Part shown: positions 48,001 through 54,000 of the stretch, piece after piece | How positions within the stretch are numbered: the stretch's first letter is position 1 | Layout: every line of letters starts with the position of its first letter | NCBI GenBank assembly: GCA_964550945.1 | Contig: CAZKBD010000001.1 | Coordinates: 1 to 64,000, forward strand | Length of the DNA stretch: 64,000 nucleotides | Reading direction: 5' to 3' | Source: an uncultured Methanosarcinales archaeon | GTDB taxonomy: Archaea; Nanobdellota; Nanobdellia; Woesearchaeales; CAZKBD01 | Made by a program: the position numbers

Positions 48001-51000
48001 ATAAAAAAACCATTGCATATAGCAATTATGGGCTGTGAAGTCAATGGGCCAGGAGAAGCAAAGGAAGCAGATATTGGTGTTGTGGGGGGCAAAGGAGAGC
48101 ATCTTATTTATAAAAAAGGAGCAATAATTAAAAAATTGAAAGAAGATGATATAATCGATTCTGTTATGGAAGAGATTGATAGGGTTATTCTTTAGATGTG
48201 AGTTGTCAAGAACCGCCGCCCTGAAGGGCAGGGTGTGTTCTTGAGCACACTCAGAAACCGCCCTCTTGCCATAAGCTGAAGCAAAGGGATTGCGAGTGGC
48301 GGTTTCTGATGTTTCAAAATGGAGCATTATTAATAATCTAACTCATCACTATTGCTTTTTTCTTTTTATTCAAAGGCTAGGTAACTAATGGATCAAATAG
48401 TTATGTTAATTCTCTAACAGATTATTTTTCGAATTTAGTCCACAGAATGATTATTAAAATGTATGCAATAAAAATCATTAACGGTTTGAGATAGCCAGTC
48501 AGCTCAAAATTACCTAAGGATAGTTTATCAGCAAACAAATAAGAACACAATAACGCAATAAATGTTATACCCATAATTTTATCAAAACTTTTGTTATTAT
48601 AACTCTTTAATTCAAAAATAGAATAGATGGATACCAACAGAGGGATAAGGCTTCTGTTTAATTGCAATAATGCTGTCGTAAAATCTTTCCATATTAACGA
48701 TTGGATTAACGAAATGAATGAGCCCCACATATAGCTAGGATTTGTTGGCACATGCATAGGATTGAACAAAAAGATTAGAGAAGCTGTCAATGCAAGAACC
48801 CAAGCAATTTTTTTCGTTTTATTTGTATTGATAAACAGAAGGGCTATTGAAACCAAATATAAAAATAAGTATAGCAACAAAAATTTTGCATAGAGAAAAG
48901 TTTGAATGCTAAACAAACTTCCGATGACCATATTGAAATTTAGAATAATAACCAAAATTACAAAAATAATAAATGTTTTTTCTTTGAGATTAAATCTTGC
49001 CATTTATATTAAATATAAAATTGAGCATATATAAACATTTTGACCAAAAGGAGGCATACAACAACATATCAATCAATCCAGTAACTAGCTTACCGTAATC
49101 ACTTTTTTCTTTTTATTCAACGGCTCAATAACTAATGAGTCAAATAGCTCTACTAATTTTTTAACAAATGGGTTTTCAGTATTTAATTTGTAAAGCTTGG
49201 CATTTCCGATATCCCTGGTGTGGGTTATGATTCCTAAACCTATCAAATCAGCCCATAGCCTAAATAAGGTTGTCCTTCCAATGCCAGCTCCTTCTGCTAT
49301 GTCAGAGATAGAATAGTCCAGCTCTCTGCCCTCAATCAGGAACTCTAATACTCTTATTTTTGGTGTGTCTCCAACTGCTTTAGTAAATAGCGTTTCCATA
49401 CAACTACGTTAAAACGAACCAATATTTAAATGTTTCTATTTTGGAACGTATCAGTTCCATATTTAGAGTTAACTTTTATAAATAAGCGCCTATTCCATCT
49501 GCCTATGGATAAGATATTTATTATGAAAAGATTTTTAAGAAAATTGATTAATCTCGAGATTTGGGGTGGCAGGCATACTGAATTAACTAATCTAAAGAAA
49601 TGTATACCAAAACACCTTAGAGGAGAAAAAGTTACTTCAGAAGCTATTAAAGAGCTTGTTGGTGATGGCTTAATCATAGTCAAACAATCAACTGGAGAAA
49701 TTCATGTTGCATTAAATTCACAAAAACAGCATGAGATTTATGAATTTGTAAAAGAAGAATGAAACAACTATCAATCTTAGGCTCAACTGGAAGCATCGGA
49801 ACCCAAACACTGGATATTGTTAGAGAAAACCCTAATGATTTCAAGATAGTTGCTTTGACAACAAATAAAAATATCCAACTTTTGAAAAAGCAGATTGAGG
49901 AGTTCAAGCCAGAGCTTGTCTGCGTTTTTGACAAGGAGGCTGCAGATAACCTAAAAATAGAAATTCCGATCCACAAAGGGATGGACGGTTTGATAAAAGC
50001 TGCTACAATTGACAATGCAGACACTATTGTCAATTCTTTAGTCGGCTCAATTGGAGTGATGCCCACTTACAAAGCAATTAAGGCAGAAAAGGATATTGCT
50101 TTAGCAAATAAAGAAACATTGGTCACTGCAGGAAGCATAATAATGGATGAAGTTAAAAAAAATAATGTCAAGCTAATGCCCATTGACTCAGAGCACAGCG
50201 CAATCTTCCAGTGTTTAAACGGTGAAGACATCAAGACAGTTAACAAGATAATAATTACCTGCTCAGGAGGTGCTTTTAGAGACAAAGCAAACCTAGAAAA
50301 CCTAAATGCAGCAGACGCACTAAAACACCCAACATGGAATATGGGAGCAAAAATCACAATTGATTCTGCAACTTTGATGAACAAAGGATTTGAGGTTATT
50401 GAAGCCCATTTCCTCTATAGTATTCCTTATGAAAAGATTGAAGTTATCATCCATCCTCAATCAATAATCCACTCATTAGTTGAATTTAATGATCATTCTG
50501 TCATGGCTCAGTTAGGATTGCCTGACATGAGGATTCCTATACAGTATGCCCTGGCTTATCCAAGAAGGATAAAGAACCAGCTGAAATCACTAAACCTGAA
50601 AGAAATAAAATCCCTTGATTTTAAAGAGTATGACGAAAAAAGGTTCCCCTGCCTAAAATACGCTTATGAAGCAGGCAAGATTGGGGGAACATTGCCGGCA
50701 GTTATGAATGCAGCTAATGAAGTTGCAGTTGCCTCATTCCTCAAAAACAAGATCAGCTTTGTAGATATTCCGATGACAGTTAGAAAAGCGATGGACGAGC
50801 ATAAGGTAATCAAGAATCCTGAGCTGGATGAGATTTTGGAAGTTGATAAGGAAGTTAAGGAAAAATGGGAAATGTTTTTAATGTACTAGCAAGGTTATTA
50901 AGAAACCCTCGGAAAAGCGCTCAAAATCAAAGAGATCGCCCAAGAGTGGATGTACGTGAGCTGAATATAGAAGCGATTATTGACACCAATTTACAAAGAT

Positions 51001-54000
51001 GCCATATTGGAAAGCTGGTTAATTTGAGCTGTAGTGGTGCATTAGTGCATTATCCAATTGAATTGCATCCAGGAACTGAGTATCCATGGGCATTATCTGG
51101 CCGCAAATATAAAATAACTGGAACTGCAGTATACAGTTGTTTTAATACCAAAGGAGGTTATATGATAGGAGTTCAGTTTAAAGCGCCGATCCAGGATGTA
51201 AACATAATCAAAGAATACGGCCTATAAGAATGGCAATAGCAATAATAACCGCAGCAGGAACTGGAAAAAGAATGAATCACACAACCAATAAGATACTTCT
51301 CTCGCTGGCTGATAAGCCCATAATATACTGGACAATAAAAGCATTTGATGATTGCAAATCAATTAATGACATTGTTGTAGTTGTCAACAGAGGAGATAAG
51401 ATAGAAATCACTAATATAATAAAAAAGTCAAATTTTAAGAAAGTGAGAACCATTGTGGAGGGGGGTGAGAGACGGCAGGAGTCTGTGCATAATGGATTAA
51501 ATGCAATAGACGCAAACGATGATGACATCATTTTGATCCATAATGGAGCAAATCCTTTTGTTTCAGAAAAATTGATTGAAGATGTTATCAAGGCAGCAGA
51601 TGAATTTGGCGCAGCAGGGCCTGCAAATCCAGCGCGAGATACAATAAAGGAAGTGGATAAAGATAATTTTGTAGTGAAAACATTGGACAGGAGCAAACTA
51701 AGGAACATGCAGACGCCTCAGGCAATAAAATATAGTGTTGCCAAAAAAGCATTTCAGCAGGCAGTTAAAGATGGTTTTTATGGCACAGATGACCTGGCTT
51801 TGGTTGAAAGGCTGGGAGAAAGGGTTAAGATTGTTAAAAACGAGGCTGAAAATATCAAGATAACCTATCCTCTTGATCTTAAATTTGCAAACCTTTTGAA
51901 AGATTCTATCAGAGTTGGCATTGGCCAGGACTCCCATAAGTTCGCAAATGAGGAAAAGCCATTGATGATGGGCGGGATTAAAATAGAAAATGAAAGGGGT
52001 TTAGAGGCAAACTCTGATGGAGATGTTATCCTTCATGCCATATTTAATGCTATTGCATCTTCAATTGGAGAGCGCTCAATAGGCCATTATGCAGACGATA
52101 TGTGCAAAAAAGGCATTAAAGACAGCAAGGAATACCTTAAATTTATTTTAAACATCTTAAAAGAAAAGGAATATATTATAAACAATATCGGAATTGCGTT
52201 AGAATGCAAAACCCCCAGTATATCTAATATTGAAGATAAGATAAAAGGATCCTTGTCAAGATTGTTAAGCATAAATGACAACCAGATCGGGATTACTGCA
52301 ACATCAGGAGAAGAGTTAACAGAATTCGGGAAAGGGAATGGCATTCAGTGTTTTGTTATAGTGGGCGTTAAGAGGAAATAAAATGCAATTAAAAGCTTAT
52401 GCAAAAATAAACCTGACATTGGATATTTTAGGAAAGAGAAAAGACGGCTTTCACGAGTTAGAATCCGTTATGCAGCAGGTGGATTTAGCAGATGATATCT
52501 CAATGAAAAGGCTGAATAACAATAAGATCAGCATTGATTGCGAAGGCATTCCTCAAAAAAAGAATCTTGTCTTTAAATCAGCATTCTTCCTAAAGCGTAA
52601 TTTTAATGTCAACGCAGGAGTTGAAATAAAAATAAAGAAAAACATTCCGATTGCAGCAGGGCTTGGCGGCGGCTCTACAGATGCTGCTGCTGTCATAAAA
52701 GGATTAAATAGGTTATGGAACCTTAATCTAACTATAGATGAATTGATTGAGTTCGCTGCAAAAACTGGCTCTGATGTCCCATTTTCAATTGTTGGAGGAG
52801 CTGCTCTTGCAAAAGGCAGGGGCGAGATAATTAAAAAACTGGACAATTTTCCCGCCCTTGACTTAGTGATTATAAACCCTGGTTTTGGGATAAAGACCAT
52901 AGACGCTTACAAAGGCCTGGATTCCTCAAATTTTGGCAAGCATAGAAAAACCGCTGTCTTGCTAAAAAAACTGACAAAGGGAAATATAACAAAAAACCTT
53001 AATAATGATTTTGAAGAGACTATTTTCAAAAAATATCCTAAGATTAAATCTATAAAAGACGACCTTATGAAAAATGGGGCTATGAATGCCCTGATGTCAG
53101 GCTCTGGCTCTAGCGTTTTTGGCATATTCAAAACTAAAACCCAAGCCAAAACTGCTGAAAACAGCCTAAAAGATAAGTATAAATTTGTATATGCAACAAA
53201 AACAATCACCAATGAAAGTAACAATAGCAAATAATTCAGGATTTTGTTTTGGAGTTAAGAGGGCATTAGACATAGCCCTAAAACAAAAAGATTCTTTTAG
53301 TTTAGGTCCCTTAATTCACAACCCTCAAACAATTAAAGAACTGGAAAAAAAAGGCATAAAATCAATTGAGTCAATTGATGATATAAACAACGGCACTTTG
53401 CTTATCAGGACCCATGGCGTTCCAGGAGCATTAATCAAAAAAGCAAAGGAAAAAGGCCTTAATGTAATTGATCTGACATGCCCTTTTGTAAAAAAAGCCC
53501 AGAATCTTGCAAAAGAGTTCTATGCTAAAGGATGTAAGGTCATCATAATAGGGGAAGCTAACCATCCAGAGATTATCGGAATAAGAGGGAATATAAAAGA
53601 TGCTGAGGTATTGGAAAGTTTAGAAGATGCAAACAACATTGGTTTTTATGATAAAATTGGTGTAGTTATCCAGACAACACAATCAAAAGGTAGAGTAGAC
53701 AAGATTATCAAAAAATTAAGAAGCCATTGCAAGAGATTAAAGATTGCTGAAACAATATGCAATACCACAGCTGAAAGGCAGGATCTGGCAACAGGCCTTG
53801 CAAGAAAAGTCGATCTTATGCTCGTGATTGGTGGAAAAGAATCTGCAAATACAAAAAGGTTGTATGAGTTGTGTAAAAATATAGTAGAGACCAAGCATGT
53901 TGAAATGATATCTGATTTAAAAAAGAGTTGGTTCAAAAATAAGAAGCATATAGGCATTACAGCAGGCGCTTCAACACCAAGATGGCTCATAAAAGACATC

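Follow-up and report, generated by a model that had tools for sequence, protein, structure and literature searches.

A divergent stand-alone PilZ protein encoded in the MEP operon of a Woesearchaeales archaeon as a candidate c-di-GMP receptor

Gene g00048 lies in the analysed window (the first 64,000 nt of contig CAZKBD010000001.1) and encodes what is, as judged from sequence and structure model, a divergent stand-alone canonical PilZ domain with intact motifs. It is put forward as a testable candidate for an archaeal c-di-GMP receptor; with a small soluble protein that retains the PilZ motifs, the archaeal receptor question becomes directly testable. A real gene, and a real PilZ on archaeal DNA, is regarded as nearly certain. 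The reading that is favoured, by a modest preference, is a single-domain PilZ c-di-GMP adaptor, ultimately bacterial, that was inserted in this lineage and is carried as a passenger of the MEP operon. Binding of c-di-GMP is considered probable from the motifs, the model and the analogy with bacterial PilZ proteins; by that analogy, a receptor function in vivo may be accepted or doubted with equal reason, and a first archaeal c-di-GMP receptor with its target outside MEP is given about an even chance. The features are (window coordinates, strand, evidence in brackets):

45266..48195, +, dxs and ispG (Pfam DXP_synthase_N, GcpE)
48422-49003, -, membrane protein, passenger (ORF, Pfam search)
49085-49399, -, HTH protein, passenger (6 paralogues elsewhere in the genome)
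49430-49762, +, small protein, passenger, its stop overlapping the dxr start (2 paralogues elsewhere in the genome)
49759..50889, +, dxr, its last 8 codons overlapping the pilZ start (Pfam PF02670/PF08436/PF13288)
50865..51227, +, stand-alone PilZ-domain gene g00048, 120 aa (ORF, Pfam PF07238 22.0 bits, fold, language-model features)
50871..50903, +, putative amphipathic N-terminal helix, residues 3-13, possible membrane tether (hydrophobic moment)
50931..50945, +, first motif R23-x3-R27, then h-x-h (V28, V30), putatively c-di-GMP-binding (sequence)
50946..51218, +, six-stranded beta-barrel, conserved F105 and short C-terminal helix, 112-118 (AF2, structural match Z 10.6)
51021..51038, +, second motif N53-L-S55-x2-G58 ([D/N]hSxxG), putatively c-di-GMP-binding (sequence)
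51230..52381, +, ispDF fusion, start 2 nt past the pilZ stop (Pfam IspD and YgbB)
52383..55078, +, ispE, ispH and polyprenyl diphosphate synthase (Pfam GHMP kinase, LYTB, polyprenyl_synt)
56541..57005, -, archaeal-type ribosomal protein uS15, contig-origin marker (Pfam PF08069; NCBIfam NF006331)

The ORF overlaps the dxr stop by 25 nt, its first 8 codons being common to the dxr 3' end, and closes 2 nt upstream of the ispDF ATG; its GC and codon use are ordinary for the genome (27th percentile). A separately assembled contig from run X3 (822 nt) covers 50644-51465 with 0 differences and bridges dxr-pilZ-ispDF. An exact 177-nt piece inside the gene was found at low depth in runs X5 and X6, which may be one data set, and is given no weight. 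The host is a small groundwater archaeon.

Identity of the domain: PilZ is the sole Pfam family matching g00048 at E ≤ 1 (22.0 bits, cut-off 22.5; E 2.1e-4; residues 22-112 = model 2-91), and NCBIfam has no family for it. HMMER over 1.84 billion representatives gave 10 matches at E ≤ 0.001, 3 of them full-length (83, 41 and 38% identity) and 7 long or repetitive partial ones. Three relatives score 28.5, 26.2 and 37.8 bits against Pfam PilZ, each over the 22.5 gathering cut-off, and a fourth (P0012) bears a precomputed PF07238 label; the family has five members including P0001, P0002, P0003 and P0012, the most distant being 37-43% identical with the binding motifs still invariant. The motifs R23-D-R-P-R27 and N53-L-S55-C-S-G58 are read straight from the sequence; R23, R27, V28, N53, S55, G58, A59 and F105 are invariant in 5/5 members, and the h of [D/N]hSxxG is L or M. 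Position 22, just before the first arginine, is Q in g00048 but K or R in the other four members, and the Pfam score of g00048 is the lowest of the family. The motif pair alone is weak, since a loose pattern matches 4 of the 2119 ORFs of the genome; language-model features agree with PilZ (0.95). No longer or fused form of the family was found among 7999 candidates (a weak search), and a profile search of PDB sequences with the family gave no relevant relative.

The AF2 model (pLDDT 73.3; core 79-91; binding loop 44-56; N-terminal helix region <50) has six strands and a helix at 112-118, shorter than is usual for PilZ. The best Foldseek E was 1.2e-3, with no row at E ≤ 0.001, and the first non-PilZ row shown stood at rank 46. 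Of the 15 best structural matches, 14 are known PilZ proteins, at Z 7.8-10.6, and an unrelated fold first appears at Z 6.9. MotI, YcgR and MrkH reach Z up to 10.6 with rmsd 2.7-3.4 over 96-99 residues; Z fell to 8.0 against 3ph1 and to 5.3 against XAC1133, a non-binder. If no gap is assumed, the alignment end-points pair residue 23 with BcsA 580, 21 with YcgR 112, 20 with Alg44 14 and 18 with PlzA 136, which we take to align R23/R27 with the arginines that contact the ligand in these four c-di-GMP-bound structures. The ligand arginine of PlzA is R145; the register is off by one or two in three other structures, 1yln, 5ejl and 1ywu. All hallmarks of a canonical PilZ in 10.1101/814665 (fold, RxxxRhxh, [D/N]hSxxG, last-strand Phe) are present. 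Assignment to tetrameric PilZ (PilZ_2) or to divergent PilZ/PilZN was rejected: a two-helix insert of ~60 aa is missing and the motifs are kept. The PilZ identity is more than chance because Pfam, fold and language-model features agree. The survey's finding had described a PilZ-domain protein with both motifs intact, co-oriented between dxr and ispDF, with only 3 full-length relatives and with PilZ domains in the top Foldseek rows, and all of this holds; its family of four keeps its invariant motifs and gains a fifth member, P0012.

N-terminal region: The hydrophobic moment of the N-terminus is in the top 0.9-1.2% of the genome's 1251 N-termini, and is weaker in the relatives (top 4%, 8-28%, 11-28%), an amphipathic helix being strong in only 2 of the 4 sequences tested; this sequence feature is possibly a membrane tether. 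The 83% relative is identical at 92/98 core and 8/22 N-terminal residues, which points to selection on the PilZ domain.

Cyclases and proposed mechanism: The two GGDEF genes of the genome, g00461 (PocR-GAF-GGDEF) and g01641 (GAF-GGDEF), keep GGEEF, as previously noted; their catalytic residues are largely intact and their gene context is archaeal, and a DHH/DHHA1 enzyme with intact motifs adjoins g00461. The PocR-GAF-GGDEF family is inherited across the order (14/19 chosen loci); g01641 carries a long insertion, and its DxDxFK motif shows G in place of the usual K. Both cyclases keep the D of the xxGD motif, which by the criterion applied marks the c-di-GMP rather than the cGAMP type, and the RxxD I-site, so that c-di-GMP has further candidate binding sites in this genome. 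EAL, HD_5/HD-GYP and MshEN gave no match in the host genome (92.5% complete), in keeping with the earlier statement on EAL and HD-GYP enzymes. A glycogen link (glycogen synthase beside g00461; a debranching-like gene beside PilZ locus L025) was rejected, the 19 other cyclase loci giving no glycogen-synthase homologue. By PilZ biochemistry, R23/R27 and N53/S55/G58 would grip the c-di-GMP made by one or both cyclases, the N-terminal loop, flexible until then, would become ordered, and g00048 would gain or lose affinity for a partner; more tentatively, the amphipathic helix might hold the protein at the membrane and the DHH/DHHA1 enzyme might end the signal. The partner of a membrane-held g00048 would probably be a membrane machine rather than a MEP enzyme; three FlaI/TadA-type pilus ATPase loci are present in the genome, yet a pilus motor as the target is rated unlikely, and the gene context of g00048 points to no partner.

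PilZ across the order: GGDEF was found in 193/401 genomes of the order and PilZ in about 1%, which agrees with the survey's finding of a very rare family that is no general archaeal solution; PilZ copies such as g00048 are lineage-specific add-ons. The earlier count of PF07238 in 1/100 other genomes was right as to rarity and is replaced by 4/400 genomes of the order plus G226 from the class draw, which makes g00048 one among several candidate PilZ proteins of archaea. Every PilZ count here is a minimum, since the PF07238 search of its own genome misses g00048 and the order search missed G226. Four other PilZ genes have an archaeal-looking context (L025 in G322, L053 in G226, L026 in G187, L028 in G164); L026 lies on a 2.6-kb contig with no decisive origin marker. 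Two matches were left out because their contigs are probably bacterial (L027: 1.8 kb, cellulose-synthase tail next to an outer-membrane-type protein; L054: 1.3 kb, 70% GC), and two weak profile matches in G219 (E 0.006-0.008) were rejected because they fall within an ABC ATPase region and a large surface protein. GGDEF is present in all four of the other PilZ genomes, a co-occurrence that is only suggestive (p about 0.11 for three independent lineages when the base rate is 48%). HD_5 (HD-GYP-type) genes occur in 25/85 sampled genomes and GGDEF in about half, whereas PilZ, EAL and MshEN are all rare; in most of these archaea the signal must therefore be read by something not yet recognised. Searches for the DNA context of g00048 relatives gave 1 spurious partial match in 15 stretches of genome contigs and 0/205 in metagenome contigs; a motif-pattern scan gave 5 stretches, none with the motif inside a called ORF; viral contigs (0/59) and plasmids gave no match.

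Loss of receptor function: It is possible, if doubtful, that the PilZ fold is no longer a c-di-GMP receptor here but a passenger that arrived recently or is drifting, an adaptor that acts without ligand, or a protein that binds some other dinucleotide, with motifs conserved in the donors and not here. A search of 400 genomes of the order gave no family member; the weakest family score, Q22 and the missing EAL/HD_5 point the same way, as does MBT3408960.1, a Woesearchaeota cyclase (Sidorov et al. 2026, PMC13725321) whose biofilm phenotype is independent of catalysis and whose printed sequence, compared by eye, is apparently of the PocR-GAF-GGDEF family of g00461. Against this, the reading frame is unbroken and closely flanked (25 nt shared with dxr, 2 nt between it and ispDF), codon use is ordinary, the identity to the 83% relative is concentrated in the core, every predicted ligand-contact residue is kept, and the xxGD aspartates of both cyclases are of the c-di-GMP type.

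Control of isoprenoid synthesis: The survey's suggestion that the messenger acts on isoprenoid synthesis is not borne out, and regulation of precursor supply by c-di-GMP-dependent binding of g00048 to Dxr or IspDF is judged improbable. The gene is co-oriented, overlaps dxr and abuts ispDF, so that co-expression is likely and g00048 would be co-transcribed with the operon as a passenger; a link between MEcPP and the control of biofilms in E. coli has been reported (PMC11582573). However, a PilZ-like ORF stood beside dxr in 0/28 other dxr loci, where dxr abuts ispD (14) or is followed by unrelated passengers before ispD (3), other genes (9) or the contig end (2); the other four PilZ-bearing genomes are all without dxr; a published table of genes found next to MEP genes (1,199 rows, of which 22 are for dxr) has no PilZ/PF07238 entry, although a sub-cut-off gene could escape it; and no publication on PilZ control of MEP enzymes was found in a literature search. 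Unrelated passengers occur within the MEP operon both here and in relatives, and one HTH and small-protein paralogue pair lies together on contig C5. The position of g00048 between dxr and ispDF is a lineage-specific insertion; its place among isoprenoid genes looks like chance and not a functional link, and its target is very probably outside MEP. Equally slender is the prospect that a working receptor was co-opted after insertion and gates, at the membrane and via Dxr or IspDF, a MEP pathway derived from bacteria, which with the vertically inherited PocR-GAF-GGDEF cyclase and the DHH phosphoesterase would make a complete archaeal isoprenoid-control circuit.

Artefact: That the locus is bacterial sequence misjoined to an archaeal contig, or that the domain is a small beta-barrel whose motifs resemble those of PilZ by accident, is barely credible and largely refuted already: the flanking MEP genes are bacterial-type, 2/6 PF07238 matches in other genomes (L027, L054) look bacterial and X3 comes from a study that may be the assembly source, but MEP operons are an established Woesearchaeota feature, the host dxr is 54-71% identical to that of most relatives, the X3 contig bridges the locus, four lines of evidence support PilZ, and an archaeal uS15 (NF006331 200 bits, cut-off 154; bacterial model 28, under 63.65) lies 5.3 kb from g00048.

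Comparison with known systems: The adaptor preferred here resembles the bacterial stand-alone adaptors MapZ/PA4608 (PDB 5xly, 4xrn), PA0012 (8u0i) and MotL of Shewanella in its single domain of ~120 aa, predicted six-strand barrel with C-terminal helix, RxxxRhxh, [D/N]hSxxGh and conserved last-strand Phe; it differs in the archaeal host, the short C-terminal helix (7 residues), the 22-residue N-terminal extension of amphipathic character and a context that shows no CheR or flagellar genes. Identity to solved PilZ structures is 10-22%. The C-terminal PilZ domains of YcgR, PP4397, MotI, MrkH, PlzA, BcsA and Alg44 are its best matches (Z 8.9-10.6) and agree in motif register, whereas they are fused to PilZN or an enzyme domain and g00048 stands alone. 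L025, L053, L026 and L028, which a literature search did not find described in print, are likewise small, carry RxxxR and [D/N]h[S/C]xxG and come from genomes that have GGDEF, but reach 32-45 Pfam bits and are not near MEP genes; they and g00048 are different families (16-19% identity; profile-profile probability 54%) and so probably separate acquisitions. A literature search found no archaeal PilZ receptor in print, the text and one supplement of PMC13725321 leave PilZ unmentioned, and that paper names the identity of archaeal c-di-GMP receptors as an immediate open question, as the survey's finding had said. The further statement that archaeal GGDEF proteins were shown in 2026 to make c-di-GMP refers to the same paper and is too strong, the evidence being indirect assays in bacterial hosts; c-di-GMP is so far undetected in any archaeon. 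Those diguanylate cyclases, Woesearchaeota sequences among them, would provide the upstream half of a circuit, and their PocR-GAF-GGDEF and GAF-GGDEF layouts are common to the host of g00048.

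The gene between dxr and ispDF was recovered as a single open reading frame:
50865-51227, + strand, g00048, ORF of 120 aa

Its start lies 25 nt inside the 3' end of dxr and its stop 2 nt upstream of ispDF. PilZ was the sole Pfam match at E ≤ 1 (22.0 bits, E 2.1e-4; cut-off 22.5). Sequence search against 1.84 billion representatives gave 10 matches, 3 of them full-length (83, 41 and 38% identity); a fourth relative (P0012) was added by profile search, and all three relatives scanned passed the Pfam cut-off. R23, R27, V28, N53, S55, G58, A59 and F105 are invariant in the five family members. 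A loose pattern of the motif pair matches 4 of the 2119 ORFs of the genome, so that the pair alone proves little, and the PilZ case rests on the motifs being placed within a PilZ fold. The AF2 model (4-sequence alignment; pLDDT 73) shows six strands followed by a short helix at the C-terminus; modelling is poor for residues 1-24. Foldseek returned no row at E ≤ 0.001; PilZ structures were listed from E 1.2e-3 down, and the first unrelated entry among the rows shown was at rank 46. With an independent structural aligner (48,161 chains) the best 15 matches (Z 10.6 to 7.8) comprised 14 known PilZ proteins plus an uncharacterised one from Legionella; the first unrelated fold came at Z 6.9. Judged by alignment end-points and if gap-free, R23/R27 of the model would be in register with the ligand arginines of four c-di-GMP complexes, and shifted by one or two positions in three further structure entries; PlzA R145 and MapZ R9/R13 are numbered here as in the literature. 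All 30 ESM Atlas feature matches were PilZ clusters (0.95), and the canonical hallmarks listed in the available part of 10.1101/814665 were all found in g00048. The survey's finding of a PilZ-domain gene with both motifs at this site was borne out by ORF, Pfam, relatives and fold.

The DNA is archaeal in its surroundings: an archaeal-type uS15 gene lies on the same contig, 5.3 kb downstream of g00048; GC (0.38) is ordinary for the genome, as is codon use (27th percentile of 3035 chunks). A separately assembled contig from sequencing run X3 spans 50644-51465 with zero differences, bridging dxr, the whole of g00048 and ispDF; this run may come from the source study, and the contig therefore checks the assembly, not the spread of the gene. 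MEP operons are described as a known feature of Woesearchaeota in passages of PMC8204110 and PMC8421398.

The flanking MEP genes are dxs, ispG, dxr, ispDF, ispE, ispH and a polyprenyl synthase gene (Pfam). Among 150 other genomes of the order (Woesearchaeales), dxr was found in 28 (27 without the unpublished G131). The next gene was ispD or ispDF at 14 of these 28 loci (one junction was read by hand, the automatic choice being an ORF on the opposite strand). At 3 loci ispD came after unrelated passengers (an antisense ORF of 81 aa; a Dus gene; two small genes), at 9 dxr was followed by other genes, and at 2 the contig ended. No PilZ-like ORF was present at any of the 28 loci (about 750 nt downstream of dxr and the rest of the locus), the g00048 family profile found no member among 400 genomes of the order, and PilZ is absent from a published table of genes next to MEP genes (1,199 rows, 22 of them dxr). 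In the window, three unrelated genes, two from multi-copy families, stand between ispG and dxr. From these loci, profile, table and passengers, dxr-ispD is the ancestral layout and g00048 a lineage-specific insertion into a passenger-prone operon. The tight junctions make co-transcription with dxr and ispDF likely, and do not indicate a common function; the hydrophobic end of Dxr, WEMFLMY, is probably a product of reading through into the inserted gene. The proposal that the messenger acts on isoprenoid synthesis is not supported, with PilZ at 0 of 28 other dxr loci and dxr in none of the four other PilZ genomes; it should be dropped unless revived by binding.

Further features of the window were recorded as follows:
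37603-43656, gene of a 2017-aa secreted protein
49085-49762, pair of a divergent HTH gene and a small winged-helix-like gene, present in several copies in this genome (contig C5 has another such pair; also upstream of dxr in locus L064)
55095-56551, - strand, two genes convergent with the MEP operon, one of the geranylgeranyl-reductase family and one DUF116

The claim of two GGDEF proteins, both with GGEEF, was confirmed by genome search and sequences:
g00461, 520-aa PocR-GAF-GGDEF, between a DHH/DHHA1 enzyme gene and glycogen synthase
g01641, L002 970-2292, 440-aa GAF-GGDEF, beside Hel308

Both keep GGEEF and the RxxD I-site; in g01641, G replaces the usual K of DxDxFK, and an insertion of ca. 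100 aa lies near the end of the domain. EAL, HD_5 and MshEN gave no match in this genome (92.5% complete). Across the order, GGDEF was present in 193/401 genomes (185/393 after leaving out eight unpublished matches), hence far from sporadic, and most GGDEF-bearing genomes are without a recognised receptor. HD_5 was found in 25/85 genomes, with the full HD-GYP motif in 5 of 6 loci inspected (L084-L089); by these counts, it is common for genomes of this archaeal order to pair a cyclase with a phosphodiesterase. EAL matched in 3/85 (L090-L092) and MshEN, weakly, in 1/85. In G035, EAL and GGDEF matches fall within one 497-aa frame. A full-length g00461 homologue was present at 14 of 19 loci chosen among top-scoring GGDEF matches (13 with RxxD); the family is inherited in the order and is not contamination. 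A DHH homologue was nearby at 5 of the 19. PocR-GAF-GGDEF proteins (ca. 500-525 aa, RxxD and GGEEF intact) recur in many families of the order (L029-L048); judged by eye, genes for DHH/DHHA1 and a YchF-like GTPase often stand beside them, as do a PhoU/AbrB-like regulator gene and a cluster of small GTPases.

That archaeal GGDEF proteins make c-di-GMP held in part: the evidence comes from indirect assays, performed in bacterial hosts. This counts against the whole circuit, as do two further points: c-di-GMP has not been detected in archaea, and the Woesearchaeota cyclase MBT3408960.1, whose PocR-GAF-GGDEF layout and motifs by eye are those of g00461, acted independently of catalysis. The Methanocella enzyme in PMC13725321 was off until its linker was changed; by analogy, a sensor-gated cyclase may just be inactive under assay conditions of this kind.

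PF07238 matched in 4/400 other genomes of the order and in 4/300 of a class-wide draw overlapping that sample; in two of the six distinct genomes the match looks like a bacterial contig. The remaining four (G322 and G226, of one genus and syntenic; G164; G187, on a short contig) all have GGDEF. Their PilZ proteins are only 16-19% identical to g00048, which is why PilZ probably entered the order several times:
L025 1432-1869, stand-alone PilZ of G322 (44-45 bits in Pfam, with the G226 copy), Hel308 on the same contig
L053 1435-1848, stand-alone PilZ of G226, syntenic, 55% identical to the G322 copy
L028 1252-1863, PilZ fused to a CxxC...CxxC N-terminal part (203 aa) in G164, next to CDC48

g00048 is not the strongest candidate: the G322/G226 protein has a higher score and is conserved through a genus, which makes it the better one to take to the bench first.

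The best-supported reading of g00048 is a single-domain adaptor: ligand bound by the two motifs would order the N-terminal loop and change affinity for a partner, as is established for bacterial stand-alone PilZ proteins. A basic residue just before the first motif arginine favours binding of an intercalated c-di-GMP dimer; Q precedes R23 in g00048; the other four members carry K or R at that place, a difference that lowers expectations. For hydrophobic moment, residues 3-13 rank in the top 1% of N-termini in this genome, and relatives show the same tendency less strongly; this hints at a possible membrane tether. Pilus ATPases of FlaI/TadA type are encoded at three loci of the genome, with a fourth, weaker match to T2SSE, and this machinery would be a plausible target class.

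Of the c-di-GMP receptor proposal, the PilZ domain, intact motifs, archaeal DNA and GGEEF cyclase genes stand and the isoprenoid link does not. PMC13725321 names receptors as an open question, and PilZ is not mentioned in the portions of its text and supplement searched; no archaeal PilZ receptor was found in open-access literature, and database PilZ annotations of archaeal MAGs may exist. As a bench candidate for that question g00048 is a fair one. PilZ and related domains are called almost exclusively bacterial in a passage of PMC10249747, and two archaeal ComFB matches are treated as contamination in one of PMC12448109; set beside these, g00048 is a new member of the known PilZ family in an unexpected host.
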